Shown: positions 6,065-63,100, numbered from the stretch's first letter. The stretch: 64,000 bases of DNA from Candidatus Omnitrophota bacterium (GCA_038222225.1 JBBRHV010000001.1:13864-77863); one strand, 5' to 3'. A program made the numbers and translations. The notes: generated by a model not told the origin, from the sequence alone.

Positions 6065-6125
6065 TAGAAATCCTTCCGGCTAAAAAACTAACGTACAATC
6101 TGGACATAAAAAAGTACCCACTTTT

Positions 6126-39100: not shown

Positions 39101-42100
39101 GTTTAAAATGAACGAGAAAGACTGGTTTGAAACAGTTGAAAAGATGGTGAATGAGGGCGCCCTGGAAGAACGGTTGTCGTATACTCACGTTTTAGATCCG
39201 AAGATGGCCACCAAAGTTGCGATGGCAAAATTAAATGATCAGTTTGAACTCCTTAAGAAAAACAATCTGATGAACGGTAGATCGCAGGAAGAGGTCCAGA
39301 AATTGGCCTTAGCGGCTTACCGCGTTGGAATGGATGCGGTTGTTAAGGAAGGAAAAGTTCCGGCTGAGGCGCAAAAATTTGTTGAGCAGGTCATGGCCAA
39401 GTATCGCCAGTCTCTTAAAAAGTTCCGCGCCGCAGACGGTTTGGAAGTTATCTATGGGCTGTCTAAACCCACGCCGGAGATTCCGGTCTTTACGCCATAC
39501 ACCAACGGCCTTGAACTCATCGGCATTCATGCTGGGTTGCAAGTTGCTGTTTCGGCTGATGCGAAAACCGTTGTCCTGGAAAAAGTTGAACAGCGGGATC
39601 AGGATGGAAAGAGCCGCAAGAATATGAGCTTTGCGACGCAGCTCACAGCAGATTTAAAAGTTGAGACGGCAGCGGACGGCACACGGACATTGATCCTTGA
39701 CCGCAGCCATTATGAGCTCAACGAGAATCAATTGCCTAACGCCTTCGTGCCGTTGATGGAGCAGTTTGGCGTCACGAGAATCATCATCCGCGGCAAACAG
39801 CCTCTTGAATATTTCAAAGAAAAAGACGGAACGATCAATTTCAAGCGGTTCCTGCAGACAGGGGCGACTGGTCAAACATACCGTGAAGCCGGCTATTATG
39901 GCACAAGCGTTGATATGAGCGACTGGACAGTCACAGTTCAGGTTCCGTTTGCATCTCCGGTCCGTACACCGGTTGCAGGAACCGTTGCGGAAGAACCGGT
40001 GCTGACAGCTAACGGCTGGAGAATTATGATCAAGGCCGAGAACAATATTGAAACAATTTTCTCGGACTTAGGTGAAGTTTCCGTCAAGGCCGGACAGGAA
40101 CTCAAGACCGGAGATATTTTAGGTCTGGCCGGGCAGTTCAAGACAGCCGTTAAAACAGAATATCATTTCCGCGCTCAAGTTGTGGAGGATGCTAAACCTG
40201 AACATAAGCATGTAAATCTTTTGAAAGAAAATGATACAGACTCTACAATCGAAAAGATCCGCCTGGCCTTTGTGAAGAATTTCAACCTCGATCAGGCGGA
40301 AGTTGATTTCTATACAGGCAAAACTGAAACCGCTGCCGAACGCCAAGCTAAAGCAGAACGTGCCATTGAAGAGAATAACGCGAACATTGAAAAGGGTCAG
40401 GCTGAAATTGAGAAACAAAAAATCGCTGTTAAGCAAGCCAACGATCCTGAACAGATCAGACGCAGAGAACAGAATGCGGTTGGGTTCTATTTATTCGGTA
40501 AACGAGATTGGGATTCCGCTAATCCGTTCGGAGGCGCAACCGCCAGCCGTACGATGTCTGATGCTTTATACGGCGCACCAGTCAACAAAGGTAATCTGTG
40601 GGTCGGGGTTGGGTTTAATTCCATTTACTCAACCGCAGTCGGCGGCCCGTCGATTAGCTTGGGAGATAGAACACTTTCGTTTGATTCTTCCTTCGGAATC
40701 AGCAACAACGCTTTAGGTCAGTGGGGTCAGATAGCCGGCCAGGCATTTGGGTTTGAAGATGTTTTGAGCAAGGGAGTGACCTCAACAGCTTTATGGGGTG
40801 TAACAGCCGCAGACATAACATTGTCGCTTCGTGACACATATTTCGATCAAAGAAATCGTTTACCGCAGTTCGGTGGCACAGAACTCTTTGATCAGGGATG
40901 GATCTTTAACAAGCCGTGGAAGCTGGCTTTGGATACATCAGAAGTTGTGCCGAACGCCCGCGCTATCAACGGTGAATGGGTCAGCAATCCATATCATCAT
41001 ACAGATTTACCGGCGGCACGCATCTTGGAGTACCCGAACAAACTCTTCAAGGGATTATTAACGTTTGATATTTTCACGTCTGATTTCTGGAAAGATAATC
41101 CGCTGCACAAACCGTATGAAGCTATCTGGCATGAAGGCTGGATGCAGCGTGAATGGAGCAAGAGCGCGTTTGAAAATCTTGACCAAAGCAGAATTTCGGC
41201 CTTCAGCCGTCTGTCGGGAAGTCCGGAAGAATTGATTTACGGCCGGGTGAGCTTGGACGGCAGAGAGCTTTCTTACACAGAAAACATGAAGGAATTCCCA
41301 TACCTCAGATATGATTCAGCTACAGGCGATTATGCGGTTCGTGAATTCTTTGAAAAGTCGCAGAACTGGAGACGCAATGTTGAGCCAGGCACATTGAACA
41401 TTGCCCTATCACGCGCGGCGATGTTGAATCTTCCGGACCTCAGACAACAGTTCATTTTAGGTCAGGCTATTGACGGATATACAGTGAATCCGCTCACCGG
41501 AAAAGTTTATGATCCGACGTTTGGATCCTTAGGCCGACCGATGCTGTTTGATTACTTCGGTGTTCCGAGTTTCGGAACAACACATTATCTTGACCGGGAA
41601 ACGGAAAAAATTCCCGGCGATCCGCGCTATGCATGGAATTACACCGATGACCAAGGCAACGTTAAGCAGGCTTACTCTTCATATTTGAGAACGCCTCTCG
41701 CCGGAGGAATCGATCTTGGTTTTGATGTTAAGCAAAACCCGGGTGAAACAGGATTGTTAGTTGTCTTTAATGCGGATGGGTCATTGAAAGAGACAAAGCG
41801 TTTGACCGAGGATCTAAGCAGCTTCTCTTATACAGCACTCACCACGGAGAATAAGAGCAAAACGACAATGAACATCCATAAGAAATTGACCTTAGATACT
41901 TACGAAAAGGCAAAAGACGGAACTTTCTCAGATCAGGCTAAACATACTGAAATTCCGTTTGCCGGATTGCAGGTGGTTGTTAAACATAAGGGCCTGACCA
42001 ACACTGTTTTTGAAGCTGAAAAAGGCCAGAAGACAACCGATACGGTTTGGGCCCTGGCAGACGGGAAATTTGTGAAAGGTGAGATCGCGGTCGTGGTTCC

Positions 42101-45100
42101 GTTCCCGGCTAAAGAGAGAATTCCTTACGGACGCATGTTCTCCGAAGGCAGAATGTATTATCTGTATACCTCCAAAGATTATAATGTTCATCCGAAGGTT
42201 GAGAACGAAGATGTCTACGGCTTAAGCATTCAGGTCGTGGATGCCACGGGCAAAGTGGTCCGTGATGAGCCGATCAGAAACCAGGGCCAGCTTAAGACTA
42301 TGCTCGGCGTTGGCGTTGAAGGGGTATTTAAGCTTTTTGAATTAGGGGCCAATGCCGATAACATTTATGTGACGATGGATGATAAACAGGTCTACGCGGT
42401 GGAATTAGGCGACACCAATGAAGCGATCAAGAAAGACAATCTTCCGCCGATACGGGAAGTTTCGGTCCGTCTCCAGCAGGATCCGAAGCCCGAACGCGTT
42501 GAGCAATTCGGCGACACGTTGATGAAGGCCGGCACGGAATATAAGATCTCCGTTGAAGACTTAAATAAATGGGTCCAATCTTTAAAAATCGAAGGATTGA
42601 ATTCAAAAGAGACAGCGGAATTGCTGGCCAATGTTAAGAAATTCGACGGCATTTCAAAGCACCGCACAGCAAAATCAGAGGCTGCCAATAAAGCGTATGA
42701 GATCTTAAAGAAGATGCAGGAGAACGCAGGCAAAGCAGCGTTCAATGCTCATGCCAAAGCTTTCAACCAGGTCATGCGCTCTCTGGCAGACCAGGACGAG
42801 AAGATGGTCTCGATGAACTCCTTAGAGCGCGTTCTGATCCTGGTTGCCCGCGACAGAGCCGCGGTCAACAACGAGACCGATGATGACGGCAGCAAGTTTA
42901 TGGCGTATCTCAAAGCGGAAGCCAAAAAGTACGGGTTCGGTAATGTGATCAAACGTGAGATCGCCGCCTACTTCGGACGCGCGACCGCTTCGATCTTAGG
43001 TAAGCCGGAGTGGCATAACAAAGAGATCGCTCAATTAGGCCAGGCCATCGATCGCAATATCAATCTGCAGGATCCGAATTTTATCTCCGCTGCTGACGCC
43101 TATGCATTAGACACAGAAGAAAAGCCGATCGGAGAGCGCATTCAATACATTGACAATCAATTAAACGGTTATACGGACGCAAATGGTGTCGAGCATGTCG
43201 GATTAAGTACGCGCAGAACACAGTTGGAAACGATCCGTGATACACGCGCTTGGGAGAATCCGGATGAAGAAGTGGATCTGCTGTTTGATTACGCAACAGA
43301 AGTTGTTCCGGGGATCGAAAGAAACCGCGCGCAGCTGCGGGAACTGCAAAACAACTCCTTGGGTTACTGGACGAGAGAAAATCAAAGAGCCCAAGCGATG
43401 CTGACAGACAGAAATTATGGAGGCGAATCGTATCGTGCGTATGTGACCTATACCCAGTCGATGATTGATATGGTAAATCGGGAGATCGCGCTAACACGGC
43501 AGGCATTAAGGATCCTCGAGCGGCACCAGAATGTTTATGTCGCGTTAGGTCAGAACGGCTATCAAGCAGCTGGATGGCAGAGCGCAGGCCGCTTGGTTCA
43601 GGATCAGATCGATATGGTTAATACGCAAATTAGCATTTTCAACGAACAGCGCACCATGCTGGTTGACGCACAAGAGGCCGGCACCATTCCTAATTTCAAG
43701 AAACTGAGATTGATTCCGTACAACCGCACAGATGACCTTCCGAAAGATGTCAAAACAATTCCTGAGACGTTTACCTGGTTAAGAGGCGAGCGCGATGAGT
43801 TCGGCAACCAGACTTCAAATGGACGCATAGACAATATCGCTAGAGATTACCAATACTTTACGGATGGTATTTTGCACACGTCAGGTCCGGACGGCATTTA
43901 CAGTCAAGACGTCGTCAATCTGGCCCGCGACTTCCAGAGAACATTGAGAGATCCGGATTATCAATACAGCAGAGGCGCCTGGCTGGATAATACAACCGTG
44001 ATTTCCGAATACGCATTATATAACGATCCGGAATTCGGGCTGCTTACTCAATTAAGCAGAGATACCGCTCTTCAGAACGGCACCTCAACGGAGACGCCGT
44101 TACAGGTTTTGGAACGCCAGCTTGCTTATCAGAGAAAATTGCAGCTCCTCTATCAGACCCGCGCCGACCTCCAGAATGATATGGCAGCCTTGATCGAAAG
44201 CGGCAATTACTACAGGACGCCGGAGATCGCCAATCGCATCAACAAGATCATTGATAATGAGCGTACATTTGCTTTAAATTCATTATCAACGGTTGAGAAA
44301 TTCAGCGGCGCCGGTAATTCGTTGCGCGAAATGAATGAGGCCTTAAGCAGCTTAAATGACGCCTTGGTCATGGAGCTGAATGAGAAGGCAGAGCTCAGCC
44401 AATACGCTCAGGCCGTGGAGGTGCTGGTCAAACAGGTTGGCAGCAACTTAGAGGATTACAGCAAGGCTTGGACGCAATTCAACGATCAGTTGCTTGCTAT
44501 ACGCGCTCAATTGGTTGCCAAGGTTCGGGCCAGCAACCTGGCCGAAACCGTGAAGCTTGAAAAGATCAAGAACATTGATCTGTTCCTGGCTAATCTTTCC
44601 GCGAAACACGCGCCGCAAAAAGATGTGTATGTGGCCGGTCGATATTTTGTTTACGGTGAGTCAGCTGGAAAAGACGCCATGCGCACCTCCGGCACCAACG
44701 AATCCGGAGACGTGGGTGCAGTGAAAGTGGCGCAGACAGGCGATTTCGCCACATACCGTCAGTTCAATTTAAGAGATGTGGCCAGCGGCAACATGATCCA
44801 TGTCGGCCAGGTTCAGTCAGCTGCTCCCGGCGCTGCTCAGAATTCTTATGCTGTCGGAATCATCAACCTGACGCCGGAAACTCAAAACAGCTTGTTCAAT
44901 ATTGGAGTTGGCCCGTCAAAGAGCTATCGTTATCTGCAGAGCGCTGACCCGGATAAAAAGGGTAAAGGCATGACCGAACACGCTGGATTGGTTTTCAGCG
45001 ATGTTGCTATCAGAGATGGAAAATTGACACTGACAGCCAGCGGCATCCTGAAGGCCAATGTCAACGGCGACAATGGAATGACCGGAGGCGTGACGGCCGG

Positions 45101-48100
45101 CGCATATTATCAGTTCAACGATCGCACCCAGGTCAAGCTTGAAATGGGTGTTAGCGGTTCCGGCCGCACAACAGATGCAGAGCTTACGGCGATCGACACA
45201 TTCACCGGAAAGCAAATTTTCAAGGATACCGTTAAGATCAATAACACCGACTGGTTTGATTATCAGAAGATGACCTTTACGCATGCCTTGAATAAAAATT
45301 TGTCGCTCCGCTTCTCCGGAAGCCGTGAATTTGAACAGGGCGCCATGGGCATTGCCGAAGATGTGACATCCTATTTTGGCACAATCGGGGCTGATTGGAA
45401 ATTCGGCGATCTTCTCATGAAGGACGACAAACTTCTGATTTCAGCGGATTATGGGTTTAACGCCAACCGTGAAGCCGGCGATCGCACTCGTCTCATGCTG
45501 CAGTATCAGCAATTCTATACCTCTGTTGGCATGTTCGGCGAGGCACTGTATTACAATGCCGGCATCAAGTTAACGGATTCCTTAGTCGCTGAATTCGGCC
45601 AGCAGAAGACCGGCGATCTTTACGGACGTTTAGGATATGATCACAGCGGTTTGCGTTGGGATGCCGGTCTTACTGGTCAGGGCCAGGTCAGCAGCGGATT
45701 AAAAGTAGACCTTTTGAATATGCCTGGATTCCTGACCAAGCTCTTTAAGATCGAAACACCGGAAAACTTCAAGATGCCGGAACTGCATACCCGCAAACTT
45801 CAGACATTACAGGAGAAGATCATCTTCGCTCCGTTGGCAGAGGCACAGCATCAGACGGTCCAGATGAACGTTAATAAGACGGAAGCCACCAAAGACATCG
45901 CTAAATATACAACGCTTGTCAACGCAGTGAATGGACATGATGTGATTCCCGGCCAGCATGCCATTGCCGCTGACATCAAGATTTTAACGGATCCGAATAT
46001 TTCAGCCGAGGCGATGCCGCTGTACGGTCCGTCACCATTTGGATTAACACAGGCGGATAAGACGTATACAATGCGCTTTGTTGATCTGACACCAGAACAG
46101 CTGACCAAATACGGCATCGGCAAATATCCGAAAGAAGAAAGATTCTACATCCGCAGCACTTGGATCGATGCGCAAGGCCGTACGCAATCATTCAGTCAGG
46201 AATTTGCCGCGCAAGGCCTGGTGATCTTAACCGAGAACATTGACAAGTTAAGCGTTGAGACTCAGAAGGCGCTGGGCACATACCGCAACATTATTCCGGT
46301 CAAGCTCACCAACGCCGGTTATGAAGCGACCAAGGACGCACGCTTCGGAATGGTCGCCGGGCAGACGATCACAGCTGAAGATTTCGCTCTTTGGCTAGAT
46401 AACACTGTTGATAATGGAACGATCTCAAGCCGCGTGATGAGCCAGGTTGATCCGAAGACCGGCGAACCGGCACGTCAGCTGTTCCTGGCCAAAGACGGCA
46501 AAGTCACATCCTTAGACCTTACGAAGGAAGGGTATGATGCGATCGATAAATACACTGAGAACAAAATTTTGGTTCCTGTGGAAAGCGGATTAACAGTATA
46601 TTTGACCGGTGCAGAAGCACTTCAGTGGATCTTGGATGGCAAGTTGATTTATATGAAAAATATAGATCCTAAGATTGACGCTACACATGTTTTAGCAACG
46701 GCTGATGGGAAATTAGTCGGTTACGGTGATGCCATTGTGAAAGGAAAGTATTTGGTTCCGGAAATCGAAGCGTTTATGAAGGACAAGGTCTTGGTTCCGT
46801 TAAAGGGCGTCCGGTCTTCAACAGCTTATTTAACCGGAGCAGAAGCACTTCAGTGGATCTTGGACGGCAAACTAATCTACATTGAAAATACAGATCCTAA
46901 TATTGATGCTACACATGTCTTGGCAACAGCTGATGGAGAGCTGGTCGGTTACGGAAATGCTTTGATTGACGCCGGTTATATGATTCCGGAAGTTGAAGAA
47001 TTCATGAAAGACAAGGTTGGAGTTTTGACCTCCGAAGGAAGCCGTTACTTGACAGTTGACCAGTTTGAAGCGCAGAAAGAGGCTTTGGATGCTGCTTATC
47101 GTCCGAATGCAGAAGGCAAGATGATCCTTTCAGTCCCGGCTCCGAAGCAGACAAAGTTTAGAGTAACCACTTTCGAATCTGAAGGAGAAAAATATGTCGG
47201 CGTCAAGCTTCCTACAGAGATCGAAAAGAGAAATAAGGCGATGGATGACGGGCGGGCATATTTTGAGAACGGCCAGTTCATTATCCAGGATGCCGGCAAT
47301 GAGGCCAATCGTATCGTCGGCACCATAGCCGGAGAAAAATTGCTTGAACCGGCAGCTTATGTCACAAAGGCGACCGTGCCGCAGATGAAGTATAAAGAGG
47401 GAGAACAGGTTTTTGTTAAGGGTAAGGGTTATGCATATTATGAGAAAACATTGACCGGGAAATATGAGCCGACCGCAAAAGTGATCTACAACGCCGAGAA
47501 AGACGCAAAGGTTCCGGGTTATCTACCGCTCAAGAGAGTTGTCGTGATCTTACCGAACAGAGCAGCGCAGATTGAAGGGGAACTCCTCTTGAACAAATTC
47601 GGAGCAGTGGAAATTAGCTCGATCCAAAAGAGATATTATTTTGTTATCGGTGAAGACAAAGTAGGCGCCTATGTTCCAGTTGATGAATTGGTCAACCGAC
47701 GCTCAGAATTTATAAGTAAAGTTCAAGAGATCGTTCGATATGGCGACACCTTAGAGCGAATCTATTTGGATGCCAGCGCAGCTGACGGTCAGGTGGATGA
47801 AAACGATAAAGTCACGATTGTACGCAGCAACAGCCGTACTGACATTTACCGATTAGGACAATATACTATCGACGCCAGTGGAAAACTCACCTTAACAGGT
47901 GATCCGATCGGCGAAGACCTTCTTCTTGCTCCTGAGGCGGATGGTTCGATTAAGGCTCAATTGATATATGGAATTCAGCCGTTCGTGATCCCGGCTGCGG
48001 AAGTTAAAAACAACACATATCATTTGAACAGAGATTTCTATTATCAGAGAGAAACCATCAATGTCTATAATGCTGAAGACAAGCAAATCCGACAGATCAT

Positions 48101-51100
48101 GCCGTTAAGCGATACGATTATTTATTTATCGCCAAAGGATGGTTATGCAACGCATGTGACAGATTTGAGCGGCAATCTCAGAATTGTTTCTCAGACAGTC
48201 GAACGAGTGGAGAATGGCGAAAAGGTCGTTGAGACAACAGATGTTCAGGTGGATGGGAAGAACAATGGATTCGCAATGGTCAAGAGGACCACCTATAAGA
48301 ACGGCGCATTGCGCGAGATTTTGGTCGGGGTTATGAAGCTTGCCAATAAATATGATCTGAGCCAGCCGTTCCCGACAGTTAAGCCGGAGATCTTCACGCT
48401 TAGAGATTCTTATTCTCAATCTGAGCGCAGAGTTGATATTCGAACCAACGGCGAATGGCATGAAGGATGGAGAATTTATGGAAAGATCAACAAGCATATT
48501 CAGCGGTTAGAGGCTCAGCAAACCCGGACAGTTGAAGAGGATCGACAGCTTGCAGCATTGCGACAGGCGCAGACATTTGTGGATAAATTCACTCCGTCGA
48601 CTAAAGAGGCCTTAGATGCGCTGGCTGGAAGAGGAATTCAGCTGAATGTTCAGTTAAGCCCGAAAAACAGCGTTGCTGTAAACAAAGACACAGTTCTTAC
48701 GCCTACGGTTGTGGTGTTCCCGAATCAGGTTATATCCATTGATTGGCGCTTAGATAACGATATTTTAAATCGCAAGCTTATCACTGTACGCGCAGCTCAG
48801 GGCCGTATTGTAGAGATGATTGTCGGAACCGAATTTGATCAGCGAAGCGGAGAGGTTACAAAGACGTATACATTGACATCCGACGCCCAGATCAAGAGCC
48901 GGTTTGAAACAGCTCCTGCTCCGGAAAGAGCTGACAATATCTTTACTGGGCTCATTGTTAAGAGCTTTGCAGAGGTTGCGCATAAGCGATTCTCGGATGA
49001 GACCGCTAACCTGTGGAAGTTCTTAGAATATCATGGCGTGTCTCAAGCAACGCCGCTGACAGTCTTAAAAGAAACACCATATTTACCGGATGAAACCGGA
49101 AGATATACAGAAAAAGAAGGCGCAGCAACAACGCATTATCTGATCCCGGATGACAGCCGCGGCCGAAGCTTGACTGTGGTTTATCCGACTGAAGATCAGA
49201 GTTTGAACTTATGGCAATTTGAAGGCCGGGAGGTTCGCATAACCAATGGTAAAGAGCGAAAAGTGACCTTCGGCGTCGGCGTCACTCCAGGAAACATCAC
49301 ATTTAAGAAGGACGGAAGCTTGCGCGGTATTGAAATCTATCACACAACCGTGCGCGAACAGCAGATCAATATTTCCTATACTCAAAAGGTCGTGGAAAAC
49401 GGCACGACTCATGAACGCGAATATACTGTTACGAAAGAAAAAGACGGGGCGCTTAAATTAGTGGTTAAGCAGGATGGAAACACGATCGCTTTAGCGGTTG
49501 GAAATGAATATGAGGTCCTGGACTCAGGCTTAAAGAAGAATGTTTTCTTTACACAGGGCGGTCAATTATTAGCAGAGAGCCATCAAAAGGTCGTTGGCCA
49601 GATCCTCAAAGAGATTTTGGGTGTTCAGGTTCTCGGCGAAAAGATCACGATCTATGATGTTCTTTCACCGTATAGACGTCCAGTGTTCTCGTTCGATCTG
49701 GAAGGCAATCTTGTAGACGAATATCTGGAGCAGGAGTTCAGCATCGGCGAAGAAGTGAAGCTTGATGGAACAAAGACATATGTTCAGAAAACAAAACTCC
49801 GCGTTATAGAGCCGGAAGGATACGCGCCGGATAAGAGGTATGAACAGGAATATCATTATACCGGCGACAAGATTGATTCCAAGGCGCGCCCGGGTCTGTG
49901 GCAAAAGTGGGCGGAAGATTCGTCTTCCTGGATGAATATTTCTAAATTGTGTGGCTTGTTTGTCTTCCTTGCTTTCGGTGTCGGCAGGCTTTGGTCCTGG
50001 ATCGGAAACATTGTCCGCTGGATCAAAGGTGTTAGAAAAGGTAAGACTCAGCCGGATTCAATTACACTGCAGTATACGCCTGAAGAGATCGAAGCGGTTC
50101 TTGAAGCGATCAAGAATCTGCCGGATTACGGATGGCAGTCTGGCATTGCGGATCAGGCCCGGGAAGCCGTTGGGGCAGAATTCAAACGAAGATTGTATGC
50201 CGGTGAGCGTGTGGAAGATATCGTGAAAGACCATTTCAGTTATTACAGAAAGAACTGGTTTATACCGGTCATGGGTAATACGAAGGATAAGGATGCGATC
50301 CTAACTGCGGATGAATTTAAAGCTCAGCTGGCTGAGATCGATGCCTATGGCGTTAAAGAAATGTACATCAATTCTATGACAAAGATCGGAGCAGATAAGC
50401 TGTCTTATGTATCTCTCTCCACGGGCGCTGCATTGTTCTGGATCGCTATGCAGAGATATAAAAAGGCGAGAGCTGATGGAGATAAGGTTGACGCGCCTGA
50501 CGCGCCGAGCGCTACCAATGCGAGCGTCAATCTCGGACATGAGATTGAATTTAAACATGTTGGAATATTCTCTAAGTTATTGACTCTTCATAATGGAAAG
50601 TCAAAAAGTGAGGCCATTCATCATGATGATATTGATTTGTATTTCAGGACACCAGGGTGGTTGAAGCGCTACATTACGCAAGACGATGATGGAGAGACGG
50701 GTAGAGATATCATTGCAAAAGAGGTTGCAGATCAGCTCTCTGGGGCTAAAAAGGTTGGAATCAATGAGATTCTATTGAAAGCCTATCCGGATGTCAAGAC
50801 CGGGTGGCGTGGTATTAAAGGACGGGCCCGTATGCTTACGACCATCTTGAAATATCTCAATGTCATCGTAGGGATAACCGCTATAGGGAGTTACGGGTTG
50901 GTTTGGAGCGGAACATTTTCATTGTCTGTGGCGATTTCTGCCAGCACTTTGGCCTGGTTGGGCGGACTTGTCATCTTCATTGCATTGTTGGTCGCGATCA
51001 ATTTCGGCATAAGATTTGCCGATAAAAAATGGCAAGAAAAGCTGACGTTAAAGGAACAGAAAACTTGGGATACAGTGCCTTTGGATGCAGGAATTAAGCC

Positions 51101-54100
51101 AGAAGATTATCCGAAAGGAACCAATGGACGCAACTGGCGGGCAAGGATGATTTTTGCCATTATTATAGGTATGAAGCTCATTGCGGGTCTTTATATGTTC
51201 AAGTGGTTATCTGTACCAGTTGGCATTGCCTGGAAAGGCACTGTGCTCTTGCCGGCAGTTCTGGGCGGAGGCACGTTGATCGGCGGAAACTTATTGATTG
51301 TGGGTCTGTTTGGAGTCGTTTTTGCTGGGATATTCCTGCTGGATATTTTTGCCTATTTCTATCTGGTCGAGACGGTGCTTGGGACTTGGATCGCCCGTTA
51401 TCAAGGGATCAATCGCGTGCATAGCTGGAGACGCAACTCGCTGAGCGAAGGCGCTTGGATGCTCTCTCTGTTTGGATTGCTCAAATGGGTCTTGCCGGTC
51501 AACGCCGCTCTTATTCAGCAGTATCTTTTGCTTGGTATTGGATATGTTGTTAAGAGCAGCACTGTCATTGCCTTCTTCAGTACACCGGTAGGCGGGGTCG
51601 TTATGGTTGTTGGTGTGGTCATCTTGCTATTGGCTTTAAGGGCTATTGTAAACGCAATTTTAAGTTCAATGGGATTTGAACGCATTGGGGGCGATACGTT
51701 TGTAGAAATGTTTGGTAAAGCGCAGAAACAATTTGCTAATAAAATTCTTCCGTCTTCGGTGGTCCGGCCGGATGGCACCAGGGCGGCATTGACAGCGCGT
51801 GAAAAGTTTGTGGCCTGGGTCAAGGCGTGGAACATGATCGTTCATCAGATGAGAGAAGATGATATTATCGGCGATGAAGAGGAGAAGAGATTAAGCTATA
51901 AGTTCACAGGAGAGTCTGAAGAGGATTTCTTGGAGATCACAGGTAAGATCACAGGGCCGGATCTGACGGTTACACCTAAAGACGGACGCGCACGCAAGCG
52001 CCTGCAGCATTTCATCTCTACCTTATTTATGGATATGGAGCAGACCCCGATTTGGGAGAGAATGTATTTGTTCTCTGCTGTGTGTCCAATCTTTGAAGAG
52101 CCGAATATGTATCCGTTTAAAGATAAGTCGGTTGGGGTTTACGATGCTATTAATGAAGTATACAAGACAGGAAAGACGTTCTTGACGCATATTATTTCAA
52201 AGGTTCCGCATCAGTGGCAGTATTTTATTCAGCGCATGGAAGACAAATTGCAGATTTTTACAGAAGAAATGACTGAAAAAGCAAAGACGAATCCGAAGAT
52301 CACTCAAGACATGATCGATGAGGCTGTCAGTCGTAAGCGGGATGATATTGCGGCCATGAAGGCGCTTGGTATGGGTCAGAGGCTGGTGCTTAAGGATACC
52401 GAGATGATCAATGAGGTCCGGGCCTGGGTCAGCTACCGCTTCCAGCCGTTCTCCCGTACAGCGCGCGGGATCATGACGTATCATCAAATGTATGAGTTCC
52501 AGGCTAAGGTCAATTATCCGACCGCAGAAGCTCTGAATGCCACACAGAAGATCCGGGGTGAGAAGCCGGAAGAAAAGAAGAAGAGTTACGTGCAGCGCAT
52601 TATAGACATTGTTAATGAGAAATTTGAATTTGTGGTTGGGGATTTTGTTTACGGGGGTCATCGGAATGGTACAGACGGATCTCCTGAAGCCATGCTCAGA
52701 GATGATATGCATGCGCTTATGGCCAAGTTCCCGGGAGGCATTAAGCTTGTGTATTGTGCAGCTCCAGATAAAAAGAACCCTAATTATGCACCAGTAAAAG
52801 TTGAGTATTTTGCAGGTGTTCCGACACAGGAAGATCGGGATGCCGGTGTGATTATGCATGAGTATGAGGATGAATATACTCATCAAATCACCGGATACTT
52901 GAAACAGGTCCGCGCCTTTAATATTCATAGTTATTTCTTTGCCGGCCAAGGAAAACCGGTCAACCAGAATAACATGTTCCGTTTCACCAAAGGTGAGATC
53001 ACGCAGATGATGGATATGAACCAGGATATGTATCTGGAGGAGACGTTTAAGGCGCCAAGCATGATGGAAGAGTTCCGTAAAGATCCTAAGATCGCGATCA
53101 TAGGGTTCCCTGAAGATATCTTTACAGATTACTTCAGCCCTGCCGGTGCTGTCCACGCCTTCGGAGATCGGACATTTGTCACCATGGTTCAGAGGGTCTT
53201 AGAGTTTATGGGGATCCGCTTCCATTACGGGCATCCGGACTTTGTCCGTACCAATGCCTTTAGACAGCTGGGCTTATTGAGCGCGCCGTGGGTGAACGAA
53301 GACATTTTTGGCGCGTATAAAGCCATGCTTTATGGGCAGAAAGTGATCAATCGCGAAACCATGCAGGCGGGTAAAGCGCGGGAAGCTATGTATATTGCTT
53401 TGATCGGTATTTCAGAAAAATTCGGCGCCGGCGGATCTGAACAGCCGTTGACATATATTGTTCAGCTCCTTAACCGTTCAGGCATTTTCGGATTTGCGCA
53501 AGGATTTATGCATGTGGTCGCGTCCATGGGTTATTTCTTGCGCAAGGAAGTCATCGTTCTGACAAATAACAACTATATTTTGATCCTCCTGTTCTTAGGG
53601 GTGAGCGCGTTTGCGGCCTTCCCGAACGAGTTGACATGGGGTCTGATTGGTTTATTGATGTCACAGGCCATTACCTCTACCGGATGGGCTCAGGTCTGTA
53701 TCGAAGATGGGTTGATTTTAGGAACTATTCGATTTATAAAATTGTTCCCGTCTTTGGCCATGACATACATGTCTTTGATTTATAACGCTTTTGCTCCGGG
53801 AAGCAGAAAAGCGTATGTGAATCAAGCCGGCTATGTGGCAACAGGTCGGCCTCCGGGGCTTCAGCACATGTATCCGTTCAGGCCGACGAACCATATTCTT
53901 GTTAAGTTAAGGGTCATTGCCGGCGATCTTTATGGACATGTAAACTTGAGCGGATATGCCTGGGTGGTTCCGATGGTCGCGATCTTAGTGAGCGGCCTTA
54001 TCTTGTGGCTGAATCCTGGTCAGGTGTATTCATTATTCTTTATTATGTTAATCCTGTCCAGTATGTTTGCTCCGTTTATCCTGAGCCCTGGTTCTACACC

Positions 54101-57100
54101 GATCACCATGGGTATCCGCCGTTGGTATAAACAGCATTTCACGGATGATGTTCCGAGATTCTTTGAGAAGATCGATAGTTTTGGGAAGGAGGACACCATT
54201 AAAGATGTCCTATTTTCTGGGAAAACCAAACCTGAGCCAGCTGGTTTTGAAATGAACAAAGAGTTCAAGAAAAACGGAGTACAGCATGTAACAATTAATG
54301 GCCAGGATCTTACAGTCGGAAAAGAGGTTTTAACGGTAATGGATGTAAACGGAGTTTCTGAACCGACCGGCTATAAGGTTAAGGAAATATTCAAGAATAA
54401 GGTGGTTCTCGAAAAAGGAAAAGAAGATTTTATTGTACACAGAATGAATGCTTATTATGGAGCCGCCAGAATAGTAATAGTGGCAGTTGTAATAGGAGCG
54501 GTGTGGCTTATTCCGGGCAATTACCTTTATATAGGAATTATTCTCTTCAGCATTTTCTACCTGGGGTTAGGCTTTGTTTCAGATGCCAAGAATCTTTGGG
54601 CTAAGATCTTAAAACTCAAAAATATTCAGAAGATTCTGAACCATCCAAAAGTTAAAAAGATCCGGGATGATCAAGCAAAGAAAGCCAAAGAGCGTAAGGA
54701 TGAGCTAGCAAACGGCAAAGAGCGCTCAACAGCTGAAAAGGTTCGGGATTTTCTGACATTACCGAAAGGTAAAACTTTACGGGATATTATTAATCTTTAT
54801 ATGACAGGCATCATTGTCATGTTGATGTTGACCGCGTTGGGGGTTGTTACATCGGTTATTGTTGCCGCTCCATATACGGCCGGGTTGTTTATTCGTGCTC
54901 AGATCAAGTTCTTACGTCTGCCGTCTTTGGCGAAGTTTGTCGGCTGGTCTTCTCTTGTTATTTGGCTAAGTAAGCTGGCTGTTCCGGCAATCTTATTATA
55001 CACAGGCGGGTTTGCGGCATTTTTGGCCGTGGTTGGGTTTGAGGTTATCATCGGATCCTTCGCATCAGGGCTGTTCACCGGAGAGGCCGAGGATGCACAA
55101 TTGGCCTTAGATATTCGTTCGCTCCATGAGGAAAAATCTCAGAGTGTAAAGGGTACAAACAGCGCGGTCTTGGCTAATCAGAAGAATGACGGCAAGAAAG
55201 ACCTCGCCCGCACTGAAGACGGCGAGGCATTGAATGACGGACAAGAAGCTTTCTTAAGAACATTGATCGATCAATATCAGGATCAGATCGCCGCGGGTGA
55301 GCCGGTCGATGCTGCGGTCATTGAGAAAATTGCCGCTCTCCTCAGAGAGCAAGGGTATGTTCATGTTGCCAATGCTCTTCTGAGTAAAACCGTTGTCCGC
55401 GGGCCTCCGTCATTGTTTACTGATTTTGAAGAAAGCATCCATAGAGTCCTTCTGGGTACTATCACAGGGACTCACATCATCATCAATCCGATGATCCTTT
55501 CTCATCCGGTGGAATTAGCCCGCACGATCATTCATGAAGCGGGTGCTTCTGCCGGGTTGTCCCATAACGAAAATAAAGAACTCGAAAAATTAGCGCATCC
55601 GCTTTTGGTGGCGATCGACGGCCTCTCAGCAACAGGGAAGTCCGCCGTTAGCGGTTATTTAAGCAAAGACCTCAAATTTGTCAATATCTCCATCGGGTTG
55701 ATCTACCGTTTCTTCGCCGCATTTATCAAACAATCCAATTTTGCGGTGCTCAGCGATCTCGAATTTGAGCAGCTCCGCGAGATGGCTGAAAAGATCAGCT
55801 ATGTGAAGAATGAAAACGGCGAGTGGAATTTTGTGGTTAACGGTCAGGTGATCAACAGCAATGATCCGGCGTACTTTAATCCGGAAATTGAGAAAGCACT
55901 CAGCGAGCATCTCTCCAAAAAACTCCATCCGTTAGTCCTTCCGGTGGCCAGAAGAGTTATCCGTCAGGTTTTGGCCAGCGGTGAGAACGTTGTTGTTGAG
56001 GGTAGGATTGCCTGTGATTATATCGCTCCATTTGCTGATGTGAAATTGAATATTGTTGCAGAATATTCTGTACGCGCGCAGAGACGGATGGAGCAGCGCA
56101 TCGCGCAGCATGGCATAGAGAAAGCCTATATGGATGCCATAGGCACCAAGAACGCGGCAGAATACCAGCAACGGGTGAGAATGGTCGCCCATGAAATTTA
56201 TGAAAAAAGTGGGCATAAGCCCGGGAATGACCTGGCCAATTGGGCGGAGGCGGAAAAGAGGGTCAGAGCTGAAATGGCTTCTAAGATCGAAGAGGGAGCA
56301 AGGACAGTGGAGGCGGAAAAGAGGGTCAAAGCTGAATTGGCTGCCAAGATTGAAGAAGGATTGCGGAGACGCGATAGAAAAGATCAGGAACATTTACCGA
56401 AAGCGCCAGTTCAGCCCGGTAATGTTGTTGAGATCGACACAACGCATGCCCATGGTTTGGATGAGACCATTAGCAAGGTTCAGAAAGTTATTTCTCAGGC
56501 CTATCTCAGCGGACGAACAGGCCTCAGCCCGCAAGTCGCAGAGGTGACGCAGCAATTAGCATCTTTGAAGGCAGGCGAAGCTATTCCAGAAAGCTTGAAA
56601 CAGGCCATTTTGAAGGTCTTGCCGGTGATCGGTGAATTGAGCGAAGCCAAGATCGTTCACACGTTCCGCAATCTTGAATATCTGCACAGATTAGCAGCGC
56701 AGGATTTTGATTATTTCTACGATCACTTAAGCGAGCAAGAACGCGCCACGGTTGAACGGGCAGAATATGTGGCAGCGTTACAGAGCATCTATAAAGCGTA
56801 TGCAGCGTTAAGCGCACAGGAAAAAGAAGCGTTATGGCTGACTGTCGCGCTTCATGACATCGGATATATCCGTGTTAAGGACCATACCCACATGAGAGTC
56901 GGGGCTGAGATGGCTCGCCCGATTTTGGAAAACATCGGATTGAACCATGAGCTGATCGACCTTGTGGTCTTTACAATCAGCCAGCATGGTTCTATCGGAA
57001 ATTTGGCCCTGGGTGAAACAACTCCGAAGACAATGTTAAAGGCTTTAAGCGCCGTCAGCCCGGCTCTTCGGGCTGGACGTGCCCGGTTTGTCCGCCTCAT

Positions 57101-60100
57101 GAACAGCATGGATCTTTGCGGGTGGCATGTTGAAGAAAGCCGCTTGACGCTTTATTGGCAGAAGATTTTTGAACAATTCAGCTCAATCGCTCAATTAGAA
57201 GCCGCGGCACAGGCTGGAAATTATCATACACATCGTTTAGAGAAGTTCGCCCGCACAGAATTCGAAAAACAAGCCACACCGGAAGATCTTGAGAGATTAA
57301 ATCAGACTATCGAAAAATTAGTTTCTGAAGATGAGCGAGAACAATTCTATGCATGGCTCAATTCAGATATGTACATGGATTATTATGAGCCTATTTTCTG
57401 GGGCTTAAATCAAGGTGATCCGTCATATGTATCGCTGGTTAAGTTATTAAGGACATATTTCCACATTACAACTTCATTGAACGGGAAAATGCCAGAGCTT
57501 CGTCTCTGTGAGATCACGACAACCTTCCGGGAAATTTCTTCAAGTATGAAACGGCAGTATATTATTAAAGAACTGAAGGCGATTTTGGCGCTGATGCCCG
57601 AGCAGTTCACATTGAGTGATGCTACGGTCCATTTGTCAGGCAATAACTGGGTCCGGTTCTTTGGAATTCCGCTGATTCTGAGGGGCCAGTGTCTTGTGAT
57701 CGACTTCCAGTATCTTCACTTCCGTGTTTTATTGTTCAAGCTGCGCGAAAGAGTTGGTCTCAAGCGCGGGTTCTCCCGTAAAACCGGATGGCAGGTTGAA
57801 GAAGCGGCCATGGATTTCACAGGCCAGCAGCCGCTTGTTGAATCAACATCGGAAACAGCGATGGAACGCGCGCAAAAAGCGCATACGGTTATCAGCTGGA
57901 TCTACAGCAGCCATGAAGCCTGCAAGGCATTTGTGCAGTATCTTCGCGGATATGCTGTTGGGCACACATACCGCAATCGATTGATGCCGTTGTATTTTAC
58001 TGTTTATAATTTCTTGGCAGGCCGGGCATTGAACGACCGGAGGGTCTTGTCTGCGGTCGAAGCAGATTTGTTAAAAGGCAATGTCACAGTTCATCATCAC
58101 GCATGGTTCGGAAGCGATGATGTGGCGGTATCCAGAAGTAAACATGGTTCAGCGGTCAATGTGGCTCAGCCAGCTAAACGCACATTCCGTATTTTGGTTA
58201 TGGGTTGTGCCGAGAAACCGAATGGGCGCGGATCGTTGGATGTCCTGAAAGAGATCCTGGACAGGCTGCCGAACCGGTCTGAATATAATATTGAGATCGT
58301 CGGAAATGACATCGCCTTCCAGGAAGAGTTTTACGCATTCAATGACAAAGGGACATGTTTAGGAAAGCGCCATACGCGTTTTGAATTTGATGAAAACGGC
58401 GTTTTTGTTGACCCGAATTCCGGGATCAGGTATGTCCGTATTGATATTACGAAACCGGAAAACAATCTGTTAAGTGGAGAATTTACGCCGGACAGCGGGT
58501 ATGATGTTGTCATCAACTCAAGAATTGCAGTTCAATATGGGGATTACCCGGATAAAGTCGAGAGCATCAGAAAGAATTCATTGAAGATTATTAATGAAGG
58601 CGGGCTGCTCCTGTTTGATACGCAGGATACTGACCATGCCGAAGTTTGGACAAAGGGAAACAACGGCGAAGCAATTCAAATTGGGTTTGCTGTTCCGTAT
58701 ATTGATATTTGGTCAGAGAGCAAGCGCGTTGAGAAGATCCTGGCTCGTATCTATGATGTCAATGGGGAAGATGCCGAACTTGTTCGCCAGGCATTCCACA
58801 TGAGGCTCGCATTTGCCGGGACACAAGGTTTAGTATTCGCGAGGAGCATCCTGGCTCAATTCTTGGGGATCTTTGGGGAGCAGCCGATTGCAATTGCGGC
58901 ATTCCTGTTGCGCGGGATCAGTATGGAAGCTGTTCAAGAGGTTTTTGGAGAGCAAACAGCGGCACAGATCGCGGCGATCAATGGGCTTATTCCTGCAGCC
59001 GATGAAGTCGTGATCTCAAGGCAAGCGTTGTGGGCATTTGAGAATTTCAACAGCCTTGAGCATGTGGAGATCCTTCCGGCCAACGTCGGCGTATTGGAGA
59101 ACCGTCAGATGTTGTATCGTGACGGGTTGTATCAGATTGAAGCTGCTACCGTCGGTGAAAAAATGGTTTTGATTATAAGCAAAGTTACGCCGGAGCAAAT
59201 CACATCCAAGATCATTGCGTTGCATGGTGAATATGCGGTTAAATATCAGAAAATGATCGGTGCGACAAACAGCGCGGTTCTGTCAAGCCAGAATGATGAG
59301 AGCAGCGCCAAGGTCATGGATGCCGATGCATGGGCACTTGATGCTAAGAACGTGTTTGAAGATGCTATCCGTAGTCTGATCGCTAAAGCCAGCCAGATCA
59401 TTCGCTGGTTAAAGATCAGACTCTATGTGACAGACCGTAGCGACAAAGTAGTGGCTAAAGAACAGCAAAGAGTTGAAGAGATGCCGTTAGCCGCAGCCGA
59501 ACCTCAGAGACCGAATCGCGTGGGTTCAGTGGTTCATACGTCAAGTTCGCATGAACAGAATCCGAACATGGCTGTTTGGAGACAGTATTTCGAAGGCAAA
59601 CTTGCGGCAGGTACAAACGCAGCTGTTTCCGCGCCTGACCGCATGGGCAAAACAACTGCCGATTATGAAGCTGAATTTGCTGCACGGTTCAATGATGCAA
59701 CCGACGCTGCATGGCAACAATTCCGCGCCGCGGTTGAAGCCAGCCCGGCTGATTATGCTCCTGTCTGGGTGAAGATTTTAGAGAAGGCAAAAGCAGGTAA
59801 GTCGGTGGAAACCGGTAAAGTGGTTGAGTTTGGAAAAACAGTTGAGTTGGTTGAGTTGGGCAAAGCAGTTGAGTGGGCTGGATCAAATGCAGCGGTTAAT
59901 TTGGTAAAGGCAGAAGATGTAATCGTTCGGTTTGACCGGTTCGCATTCTGGGTTTATGGCGCTACTCAATGGCTGAAGATCGCGCTTCATGTGACCGATT
60001 ACAGCGATCGGGCCGTGGCTAAAGAACAGGTTCGCGTGGAAGAGTCCCAGCTTCAACCGACCGGTCCGCCGGTTGGCTCCATGAATGTTAATCGTTTGAG

Positions 60101-63100
60101 TCGTAAAGGTTCAGTGGTTCATACATCAAGCTCTGATGTGCAGAACCCGAACCTGCCGGTTTGGAGAGGTTATTTCGAAGGCAAACTCTCCGCAAGCACT
60201 AACGCCGCCGTTCTTTCATCTGACCGCATGGGCAAAACCTCCGTTGATTATGAAGCTGAATTTGTTGCACGGTTCAATGATACAACCAACGCTGCATGGC
60301 AGGAATTCCGCGCCGCGGTTGAAGCTCATCCGGCAGAATATTCTTCTGTCTGGACAAAGATCGCAGAAAAAGCAAAAGCAGCCAAGGCGCAGGCAGAAAA
60401 GCCGGTTGAGTCGAAAGGAACAGTTCAAACGGTTGAGTTGGGAACGGCAAAAACTCTAAACGCTGCGGTATTATCCCGCCGTAATTTCATTCAGAGCATC
60501 GCGGTTGCAGGTGCTGCGATTTTAGCCGGCGGATGCGCTTCGCCTACGGAAAAAATGCTTCGCGGATGGTCCAATCTTTCCATTGAAGAGCAGCGCAAAC
60601 AGATCGAGGGTATGAAGGCGATCGCCAGTGAATTTAAGGCCAAGGATACCCGTGAATTTCTAACAGAACCAGCTTTGAGGTTCCTGGAGACTCAAGCCAA
60701 GATTTCACGTAAAGACGCACTGTCTATTCGCATTCTATTCACGTCTGATGAGATGTCATCGGTAATCGGGGTGTCGACTGACGCAGGAACGATGACGCGC
60801 GCGAAATTGGGAGAATTAAGGAATCGTTTCTTAAGACATGTTCCGTCAATGAGGGCTGAGTGGCAGGAAGCCTTTGATCTGATGGAACAAAATATTTTTG
60901 ACGGTCGGGATGTGGTGGTTGTTCTCAGGGAAAGTTTATTTGATACAGAGGCCTTGGATGACTTTAGAATTGCTCAGGTTGTTCACGAAGCTGTGCATTG
61001 GGCGCAATTCACGTTCCGCAGTAAAAAGATGGGCCTGTCCTTCGGGAGGGGTGCTGAAGAATATCTCGAGCTTGAAATTGAGAAGGAAGCCTACGCGCTG
61101 CAGATGCTGTATTTGGCAGGGCGCGGAAAAACCTGGGCAACAATAGCCGTATTTTTCGCCGGAGATGCTCCGAGCGGAAAGGCGGAGGTTGACGGGCCTT
61201 TGGCCGCGGAATTTGAACAGACCCGGTTTGGGCACGGATTGAAACAAATTTGGGATACGCGCGTTGCGCCGAAACTTTCGTCGGGTAAAGCGGTTGAGTC
61301 GGAACCGACCAATTCCGCGGTAAGCACATTTGTAGTACAAACCAAAAGTCCGGTGCTAGGTACACAGGGACGAAACCAAACCGTCAAAGACGGTCAGTTG
61401 TTCAATGTCACGCAGCGTTGGCTAGAGCCGCTTGTTGATGAAGGGGCGACAACAGGCGATTCGCTTGAAGCCAACGCTGCGGTGACGAACTATTTTGAGC
61501 GTTCTTCTGACAGCATGACCTTCTCAGGAAAAGGGCGAGTTGTTCCGGCAAGAACGCGACAGCTTCCGCAGACAATTGAAGAAGATATGCTGCCGGCCTT
61601 GCCGGCCTCAAGTTTACCGGAAAATACGCCGGTGCGCGAGCTTCCGGCAATCCCGAGCTTACCAATAAACATTCAGTTGATCGTGCCGGTGTTTGGCGGC
61701 GCTAACGGAAATGGAAATGGAAAAAGAAGAGGTGGTCCGTATTCGATGATCGCCTTTGCCAGGACATTGGGCGGTTCACGCGCGAATTTAAGAGCTCCGC
61801 GCAGCTTGAATGCTGATAATTTTGGAAAACGACATTTGGTCAATTCGGCTCTAAGAGCCTCAGGCCGTAATTTTGCTTCAACAGGTTTGAGTGACGTGGC
61901 GCATGGCTCAAATGGCGACGATGCTAATAGCGCTGTTACAAATAGCGACGAAGATTCGGATGCAGACGCTGCCACGGGTGCGTCCAACGTCGAAGGTGTG
62001 CGCGCGGTAAGAGAGCGGCGGTTCAATGTGGCTTGGTTGAGTTCACGTTCATTTGTCGCTGAACATAAGGATGGAACATGGGCTATTGTTTTTGAGGACG
62101 ATCTATTTTATGGCGTGGTCGGCAACACGATGCTCGACACTGTTAAATTCCTCCAGAGTGCCGGATTCAAGAACGCGATGGTGGTGGATGCGGGCAGCCG
62201 CGGAGCGTTTACCGCCAAAGGAAAAGAAGGGGCTCTCTTTAGTGAATCGCGCGTTCCGGGCAAGGGGCCGTACACATATTTGAATGTCCTGTCGAACCAT
62301 GATTTCCCGAAGACTCCCGCACCGTCACAGAAACCGGTCGGGAAAAATCATGCCGTACTCCATGGCGGTCAAAACGAGAAGCGAAAATCAGCTGCTGCAT
62401 TCAGCAAGGGCGCAGCAGTCATATCCGGGACCAACGCTGCTTCACACAATCATCACCGGAATAAAGGGTCAAAGGATAAAAAGGGGATTCAGGCTAGGGC
62501 AGTTTCAGATAAGAGATCATCAGCGAATAATCCTCGAAACATGGGTCGCCGCAACTTTATCCGAAATGCACTGTTGGCGGGCGGGGCCGCGGGACTTGGG
62601 TTTGGCGCCTGGTTCTCCTTGCGAGGACGCGCGTTTGATCCTCTGTTCTGGAAGGCCTTTGGTTTGAAGAAGGATCTCGCGCTGTTAATAAAGTATTTGG
62701 AACAGGTCGGCGAATGGTTGCGTTATAACGGTTATGCGCACATGGATGTTGTTGAAGCGTATCTTCAGGCCGTCCGTGAAAAAGCCGAAGTCATTGATCT
62801 CAATATCGGAAGTCAGGTTTTTGGAAAGGCCGAGGATCCTGTTAGCGGAGACATTCATATTGAATTGAATATCGGGTCATTGTTCCGTATGGCCGAAGCG
62901 GTTCAGACCATTTCTAAAATCGCCCAGCGTGAGCAGGGGGCTGGCGCCGCAAACGATACGACCATGTTTGTGCAGGTGATTGTTGAATCGTTGGTCCGTG
63001 AAGCCTGGGGTTATGACCTGATGGTGCGCAACCGTCCCGGACGCAAGCAGTTCGTGAACGTCTTTAATGATCTCCGGCTAAAGATTCAGGAAGCGGACCG

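Follow-up and report, generated by a model that had tools for sequence, protein, structure and literature searches.

A Predicted Kinase–HD–Methyltransferase-Fold Cassette Fused into a Giant Multi-Enzyme Protein of a Candidatus Omnitrophota Bacterium

Results

Position and Division of the Cassette

The stretch of DNA analysed here (hereafter, the window) comprises 64,000 nucleotides (nt) from Candidatus Omnitrophota bacterium (GCA_038222225.1 JBBRHV010000001.1:13864-77863) and carries on its + strand a giant open reading frame (ORF). Beginning at 6084, its frame stays free of stop codons past 63998 and is truncated by the window end after 19,305 codons; no other frame in the window exceeds 1,087 codons. 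This study concerns a segment toward the visible end of the giant ORF, in which a kinase-like domain, an HD-type domain, and a region with a methyltransferase (MTase) fold follow one another; we refer to this segment as the cassette. An earlier note, made from the sequence alone, had described it as five housekeeping-type folds strung together in the same polypeptide as a GNAT and an alpha/beta-hydrolase domain. We found that a single stop-free frame does hold window 55600-58740 as well as the GNAT and hydrolase regions.

To define the units of the cassette, the region was searched with phmmer against 1.84 billion representative proteins, and the 1,037 matches were then mapped locally. All of the folds named earlier were present, but homology divides the region into three modules, not five. 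Module A (region residues 1-200 plus a C-terminal piece) matches ordinary cytidylate kinase (Cmk) proteins of ~220 amino acids (aa) at ~30% identity. Module B (region residues ~320-705) belongs to a family of free-standing ~430-aa proteins that also occurs inside proteins of 2,000-7,700 aa, and module C (region residues ~705-1014) to a family found in proteins 300-7,800 aa long. When the sub-regions were checked against Pfam, the kinase, DUF2934, and HD parts passed their cutoffs, whereas the MTase-like part had no match. The features of the cassette, all on the + strand, are as follows.

55605..56138, +: N-terminal part of the kinase, with Walker A GLSATGKS, IGLIYR, EGR, and LID VRAQRR (Pfam, PDB, residue mapping)
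55608-56120, +: Cytidylate_kin (PF02224), Pfam 76.5 bits, cutoff 26
56139..56360, +: 74-aa insert in the kinase, with one DUF2934 mini-domain (56166-56267) and two 18-aa repeats
56166-56267, +: DUF2934 (PF11154), Pfam 32.7 bits, cutoff 22
56361..56504, +: C-terminal part of the kinase, RRDRKDQEH ... VEIDTT ... helix
56586..57713, +: HD phosphohydrolase module B, ~390 aa, HD core ~56650-57115
56814-56987, +: HD (PF01966), Pfam 23.5-24.8 bits, cutoff 22
56658 (H), 56853-56858 (HD), 56889 (H), 56985 (H), 57111 (D), +: predicted HD metal ligands
57714..58739, +: CheR-like two-domain MTase-fold module C, ~320 aa
~57705-58150 and 58182-58640, +: helical and Rossmann subdomains of module C
58203 (G) and 58212 (E) in the G-C-A-E-K loop, 58308 (D) at the end of beta2, 58503 (D) at the start of beta4, +: key residues of module C

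The Cytidylate-Kinase-Like Module and Its DUF2934 Insert

The P-loop cytidylate-kinase-like domain proposed in the earlier note was borne out by its Pfam score and by matches to Cmk chains in the PDB, down to E 6e-9. When the 74-aa insert was deleted in silico, the Cytidylate_kin match extended from positions 1-157 to 1-209 of the 211 profile positions, with a gain in score from 76.5 to 90.5 bits, indicating that the kinase domain is complete and that DUF2934 is an insert within it rather than a unit behind it, as had been supposed. The LID motif (VRAQRR) precedes the insert, and the RDxxD motif follows it. In an alignment with eight canonical Cmk sequences and the closest relative, the large protein P0001 (described below), it was unique to the window. 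A stand-alone DUF2934 protein (P0106) matches the insert at 48% identity.

The second DUF2934 copy that had been reported proved to be an 18-aa repeat of the C-terminal helix of the motif, as Pfam matched DUF2934 only once. The 18-aa repeats at 56244-56297 (AEAEKRVRAEMASKIEEG) and 56307-56360 (VEAEKRVKAELAAKIEEG) are identical at 47 of 54 nt. Together with their spacing of 63 nt, this indicates that a short segment of 63 nt was recently duplicated in tandem. This duplication was seen by direct comparison; Tandem Repeats Finder reported no repeats in 55500-58800.

We compared the residues of the module with those of bacterial Cmk (E. coli and Yersinia structures). The window kinase has in common with these a full-length domain, the P-loop, an R110-like arginine, the LID motif RAxRR and, in the eight-sequence alignment, the canonical residues D7, G8, G13, K14, Y40, R41, R131, the LID arginines, R181, D182, and D185. 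The Walker A lysine of GKS, singled out earlier as a residue to check, is thus kept. In contrast, the equivalents of S36, D132, and R188 are I, I, and H in the window (ISIGLIYR, EGRIACD, RDRKDQEH) and L, I, and Y in P0001. The Cmk-like domains of five other large proteins have FSYGKxYR and EGR[VT]TG in common. The window kinase further differs from bacterial Cmk in its 74-aa insert, in a score below the equivalog cutoff (see Discussion), and in being embedded in a giant protein, whereas known Cmk fusions are two-domain proteins (with Der, PanC, or AroA).

In characterized Cmk, R41 and R131 bind phosphate, S36, R110, and D132 hydrogen-bond cytosine, and R188 and D185 contact cytidine diphosphate; the R188A variant of Yersinia Cmk is inactive, as are R131A and R110A (PMC3603445). 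Since the equivalents of the cytosine-contacting S36, D132, and R188 are lost, cytidine monophosphate (CMP) is probably not the substrate, and the module probably phosphorylates a different acceptor, either another nucleotide or another phosphate acceptor. The residue pattern reads as that of a domain in which phosphotransfer is kept and the acceptor changed, rather than of a decayed domain.

The HD Phosphohydrolase Module

The HD-type motif noted earlier exceeds its Pfam cutoff by a few bits, and membership in the HD fold was placed on firmer ground by the family alignment and the fold search than by the Pfam score alone. Seventeen sequences with 21-29% identity to the window were aligned, and in all of them H54, H119-D120, G122, H131, H163, and D205 are invariant. 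The module fits the extended pattern H...HD...H...H...D with six metal ligands, two extra His included, and all six of these ligands, which the earlier note had asked to have checked, are therefore kept in the relatives. Its profile also matches the HD domain of the Aquifex A-adding enzyme (E 3e-6).

Only the first half of module B superposes on known folds. With the HD domain of the class II A-/CCA-adding enzyme (A. aeolicus 3WFO/3WFR), the C-terminal domain of PPX/GppA, and 2PQ7, ~180 of 410 residues superpose, and none of the top fold matches aligns more than 184 of the 410. The C-terminal ~190 aa, helical/beta with a conserved FFGIP end strand, lie outside every top fold match, and unlike the A-/CCA-adding enzymes the module has no nucleotidyltransferase head domain. 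It forms a family of its own, free-standing (~430 aa) and inside many giant proteins. Module B is predicted to be a metal-dependent phosphohydrolase module.

The Methyltransferase-Fold Module

As the MTase-like region had neither a Pfam nor an NCBIfam match, CheR and CheR_N included, it was assessed by structure. The AlphaFold model of module C (predicted local distance difference test score 83.5, predicted template modelling score 0.83) has a helical subdomain at the N-terminus and a Rossmann subdomain into which a beta-hairpin is inserted, and in the fold search it matched almost only class I methyltransferases. The top Foldseek match, extending across both subdomains, was CheR1 (E 8e-5, probability 1.0, template modelling score (TM-score) 0.40-0.45). 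A sequence profile search of the PDB returned only a weak match to NodS (E 0.008 over 49 residues).

Going by the model, the assignment of module C to the class I MTase fold is sound, so that the Rossmann MTase-like region of the earlier note stood in spite of the lack of Pfam support. Module C differs from the CheR protein-glutamate O-methyltransferases (1BC5, 1AF7, 5Y4R, 5XLY) in an identity of 9-16% to the CheR chains, in TM-scores of only 0.40-0.45, in its glycine loop G-[SCV]-[AG]-E-K, and in having no chemotaxis context.

In the same-family alignment (17 sequences, 24-40% identical to the window), G174, E177, and D209 are conserved in at least 90% of the sequences, and D274, N298, and G307 are invariant. 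The acidic residue that ends strand beta2 of class I methyltransferases is a ribose contact. Regarding the motif I glycine, which had also been proposed as a check, the first glycine is kept and the remainder of GxGxG is not.

Relatives, Free-Standing Genes, and Fusion

We examined whether the modules occur as separate genes in relatives. Canonical Cmk occurs as a complete free-standing gene, and so does module B (P0013, 435 aa, a complete gene on an NCBI contig). Module C forms the N-terminal half of a 613-aa protein (P0005) encoded in an ordinary gene context on a 159-kb contig. The comparison of synteny suggested in the earlier note thus gave free-standing counterparts for the canonical kinase and the HD module and a half-gene for the MTase-fold module. 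These data show that each module folds independently and has relatives elsewhere. The HD module and the CheR-like module are two recurrent domain families without an existing model.

The same trio was found in a second giant protein, P0001 (3,827 aa), encoded at L001 10001-21484 in a metagenome-assembled genome labelled uncultured Planctomycetia. P0001 is colinear with the window over the kinase, HD, and MTase-fold modules, at 32% identity over 834 aligned positions. The trio stands at the start of the protein and is followed by ARMT1-like (phosphatase) and CofD domains. P0001 is a separate gene with its own AGGAGG-ATG (Shine-Dalgarno sequence and start), 95 nt behind another ORF of more than 3,300 codons (L001 1-9906). 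Genes with CBM30/CBM9 lie downstream of P0001 on L001. BLAST comparisons of P0001 and its upstream ORF with the giant protein of the window, and of the tail of that protein with L001, revealed no similarity beyond the trio, and the trio therefore behaves as a conserved block. As judged by alignment, the kinase-HD-MTase order is shown to be conserved in an otherwise unrelated giant protein. The occurrence of the modules as separate genes, together with the recurrence of the trio in the same order at the start of this 3,827-aa gene, supports the gene fusion that the earlier note had offered as one of its two explanations.

Other large proteins pair a P-loop kinase with the HD module. In P0010 a Cmk-like domain precedes module B by ~100 aa, in P0060 one follows it at a distance of ~150 aa, and in P0002 a PRK/uridine-kinase (Udk) domain comes after module B, so that the pairing is recurrent. 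In P0002 (7,252 aa, occupying the whole 21.7-kb contig L007) the order is shuffled, with the MTase-fold module first, then HD, then the PRK/uridine-kinase domain; farther on, it has a Radical_SAM and a PrmA-like methyltransferase domain. In P0002 and P0007, Pfam DNMK matches immediately before the MTase-fold module were considered as a further kinase and rejected, as they span no more than the tail of the profile. A search of metagenome contigs with the cassette region found no related loci, and an alignment-based scan of metagenome contigs returned only an ordinary stand-alone cmk gene (L008).

The Giant Protein around the Cassette

Candidate start codons of the giant ORF are ATG at 6126, 6138, and 6204, giving a protein of at least ~19,270 aa. 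Pfam scans, run in 1,000-aa pieces, and a hydropathy scan gave the following features.

3701-4558 and 4577-5458: two adjacent genes for type II secretion system (T2SS) protein F (GspF/TadB-C-like), directly upstream of the giant gene
6126..63998, +: giant ORF, a stop-free frame with Pfam matches along its length
~6795-7046, +: Peptidase_C39, Pfam 37.4 bits
~29350-29730, +: GNAT, Pfam 48.5 bits
~33480-34065, +: Abhydrolase_6, Pfam 18.5 bits, sub-threshold (cutoff 26.3)
39934-40180, +: Peptidase_M23, Pfam 38.8 bits
51975-53604, +: GT48/FKS1-type 1,3-beta-glucan synthase (PF02364) catalytic domain, Pfam 172.6 bits, E 1.7e-50
53550..55079 (aa 15823-16332), +: transmembrane (TM) cluster of ~7-9 helices by hydropathy, after GT48 and the last membrane segment ahead of the cassette

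The GNAT domain that the earlier note had placed upstream was thus confirmed, whereas its alpha/beta-hydrolase domain was matched at the expected place but below the cutoff. The two T2SS protein-F genes agree with the conserved secretion locus reported ahead of Omnitrophota giant genes, the remainder of which falls outside the window. The ORF of 1,083 aa at 14-3265 had no Pfam match. A contig of 2,772 bp (L003, Logan SRR19962012) holds an exact copy of the T2SS protein-F gene of the window.

The GT48 domain matches yeast FKS1 (7yuy_F) with E 2e-21 and is flanked by TM clusters at 49947-51650 and 53550-55079. It is a eukaryote-type catalytic domain embedded in a bacterial megaprotein, directly upstream of the kinase-HD-MTase cassette; a search of genome contigs found no relatives of the GT48 region. 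The TM clusters of the giant protein lie at aa 64-552 (with helices near the N-terminus at aa 64-82 and 370-552), 10207-10767, 14622-15189, and 15823-16332, and hydrophobic segments resume at aa 18135 and 19236. The cassette accordingly sits in a soluble stretch of ~1,800 aa directly behind the membrane-embedded GT48 domain. The M23 domain, of a peptidoglycan endopeptidase family, comes just behind the TM cluster at aa 10207-10767.

Some further observations concern the giant protein outside the cassette. An internal stretch resembling a twin-arginine translocation (Tat) signal with a lipobox-like end (LSRRNFIQSIAVAGAAILAGGCAS) was seen at window ~60465-60545 (aa ~18128-18153), 18,000 residues from the beginning of the ORF; nothing upstream of it made a convincing Shine-Dalgarno sequence or start codon. 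It looks like what remains of a former gene start, or else like a signal for sorting or processing within the protein. The first TM helix of the protein (window ~6270-6340) ends in ...FLPEQISWAMS, and the first helix of the unrelated P0060 (2,833 aa; residues 1-30) in ...STQISWGAP; QISW[AG] may be a leader motif common to both. When the cassette region was compared by self-BLAST with the remaining megaprotein, no further copy of the cassette turned up. The sole match, weak at E 0.25, was between the HD-motif region and aa 4397-4433 (window ~19272-19382), which may be a second, very divergent HD-like stretch.

Membrane Side of the Cassette

A 75-aa loop rich in K and R (aa 16167-16241) precedes the last two hydrophobic segments before the cassette. 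According to the positive-inside rule, K/R-rich loops sit in the cytoplasm, and the cassette would then be cytoplasmic too, provided that the last hydrophobic stretch, of 44 aa, is one helix. The loop therefore suggests that the cassette of the window faces the cytoplasm. The N-terminus of P0001 (MSFQRAVAGCVAFLFTITTALPSGLSSSFA/EEG) forms a helix resembling a Sec signal peptide with an N-in/C-out charge bias, and no other hydrophobic segment was found in its 3,827 aa. The same ambiguity of membrane side has been described for other housekeeping domains (West-Roberts et al. 2023, 10.1101/2023.11.21.568195).

Discussion

Taken together, these results make it probable that the segment is a fused three-enzyme cassette in a giant, multi-pass, membrane-anchored multi-enzyme protein of an Archaeovorin-like class. 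The family alignments show that the catalytic machinery is under conservation, from which we infer that the modules would act as active enzymes and not as scaffolds. The kinase, with the residues for ATP and phosphoryl transfer kept, would phosphorylate something other than CMP. The kinase, the phosphohydrolase, and the methyltransferase may act on a common nucleotide-like or phosphorylated substrate beside the GT48 synthase, most likely on the cytoplasmic face, where ATP and S-adenosylmethionine (SAM) are available. An analogy with RNA end-healing systems (a kinase, a 2',3'-phosphoesterase-type HD, and an MTase, as in Pnkp/Hen1) was considered and rejected, as a ligase is missing and the kinase belongs to the nucleoside monophosphate kinase type, not to the polynucleotide kinases.

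Several points weigh against this interpretation. The motif I loop of module C is V-M-G-C-A-E-K (G-[SCV]-[AG]-E-K in the family) and not (E/D)xGxGxG, and no Pfam methyltransferase model matches the module; SAM binding by module C is uncertain for both reasons. The kinase scores 76 bits against the cutoff of 135.55 bits of the NCBIfam equivalog for (d)CMP kinase (TIGR00017). The coupling with GT48 is drawn from the neighbouring positions of the two in a single protein, P0001 is without GT48, and nothing upstream of P0001 resembles the megaprotein by BLAST. The hydropathy map is too crude to set the number of helices between GT48 and the cassette, and the lone signal-peptide-like helix at the N-terminus of P0001 predicts that its cassette lies outside the cytoplasm.

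This last point leads to an alternative that we regard as unlikely, namely that the cassette is exported or acts as an effector in the periplasm, at the cell surface, or in a prey or host cell that supplies ATP and SAM, comparable to multifunctional toxins. Besides the Sec signal-like N-terminus of P0001, with no other hydrophobic segment behind it, this alternative is in keeping with the M23 peptidase, the N-terminal C39 peptidase, and the T2SS protein-F genes upstream in the window. West-Roberts et al. propose a role in predation and report that TMHMM put several housekeeping enzyme domains outside the cell. However, the same authors warn that outside calls may stem from missed TM helices, and a survey from 2026 describes TM-only giants as anchored in the inner membrane with their bulk in the cytoplasm (10.64898/2026.06.07.730766). 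Folds dependent on ATP or SAM have no cofactor supply outside the cell, and the K/R-rich loop ahead of the last two TM helices favours the cytoplasm in the window.

A related possibility, suggested by the signal-peptide-led orthologue P0001 and in our view slightly more doubtful, is that the conserved trio is portable, has a non-CMP substrate, and acts outside the cytoplasm of its producer, in the periplasm, at the cell surface, or in prey, or, as a variant, modifies the GT48 polymer. If this variant were true, the cassette would phosphorylate, dephosphorylate, and methylate the polymer, forming an assembly line in a single polypeptide.

The modules might instead be pseudoenzymes or scaffolds, in which the folds are retained for binding or structure and catalysis is lost. 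This would agree with the loss of three base-contacting residues in the kinase, of which R188 is by itself sufficient to abolish CMP kinase activity when replaced by alanine in Yersinia Cmk, with the 74-aa insert in the same domain, and with the non-canonical glycine loop of the MTase-fold module. Against it, the six HD metal ligands do not vary even among relatives of only 21-29% identity; the Walker A lysine, R41, R131, the LID arginines, and D185 of the kinase are retained; and the acidic residue of MTase strand beta2 is present in at least 90% of the relatives. Moreover, the lost kinase residues are base-specific and not catalytic, and related Cmk-like domains of giant proteins change the same positions in a patterned manner (FSYGKxYR, EGR[VT]TG). 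We therefore consider loss of catalysis improbable. For the same reasons, namely the retained Walker A lysine, phosphate and LID arginines, HD ligands, and MTase beta2 acid, the other explanation of the earlier note, that captured domains were repurposed as binding modules, was not upheld.

Finally, an artefact of assembly or annotation, by which a chimeric contig or errors removing stop codons would make separate genes look fused, is very improbable: in its favour, the only public contig with a gene of the window is the 2.8-kb Logan contig (T2SS protein F), and the internal Tat-signal/lipobox-like stretch at aa ~18,128 resembles a former gene start, but a few errors cannot make a stop-free frame of 57.9 kb, the kinase-HD-MTase order stands within a single ORF of an independent assembly, and other independent contigs hold the same modules in ORFs of 4,000-7,700 aa.

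The fused cassette should be viewed against the giant proteins already described. Giant Omnitrophota proteins have an N-terminal C39 peptidase, an upstream T2SS-like locus including GspF, and many TM segments, and their domains include glycosyltransferase, methyltransferase, GNAT, NUDIX, peptidase, and even glycolytic enzymes; proteins of at least 10,000 aa also occur in Planctomycetota and other phyla of the Planctomycetes-Verrucomicrobia-Chlamydiae (PVC) group (10.1101/2023.11.21.568195). In the later survey, methyltransferase, GNAT, HAD, and HD form a co-occurring module of a 'multi-enzyme metabolic cluster' class, and TM-only giants, read as cytoplasm-facing, make up 46% of 916 long proteins (10.64898/2026.06.07.730766). 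Strings of methyltransferase, GNAT, HD, NUDIX, and kinase domains in giant PVC proteins, many of them cytoplasm-facing, are thus documented in these two preprints (10.1101/2023.11.21.568195, 10.64898/2026.06.07.730766).

The window protein fits this published class of giant multi-enzyme proteins. It resembles the Archaeovorin-type proteins in its N-terminal TM/signal region with a C39 peptidase, in the GspF-family genes directly upstream, in the repeated TM clusters between long soluble stretches, and in its strings of divergent housekeeping-type enzymes; of their domain set, GT48, M23, C39, GNAT, and the MTase fold are present. NUDIX, HEAT, GT5/GT1, and SecA-like domains were not found in the visible 19,305 aa, the C-terminus lying beyond the window, and Archaeovorins are characterized by an Omnitrophota origin and a length of at least 30,000 aa, the ORF here being cut by the window end. 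No marker genes fall within the window, and the relative closest to it carries the label Planctomycetia. The architecture, called unusual in the earlier note, is so outside this protein class but typical among the published giant multi-enzyme proteins of PVC bacteria. Neither preprint mentions cytidylate kinase, DUF2934, or GT48 glucan synthase in its text, and the specific cassette and the two unmodelled families are accordingly new detail in a known class.

The current understanding of giant proteins is not overturned by this finding. Giant multi-enzyme proteins have been recorded in PVC bacteria, but their functions are obscure, and the cassette sharpens the main question that concerns the whole class, namely whether the domains dependent on ATP and SAM lie on the inner or the outer side of the membrane. 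In several giant proteins the HD module is accompanied by a Cmk-like kinase whose base-recognition residues are altered, and the modules, at 220-400 aa, are small enough to be expressed and screened for substrates.

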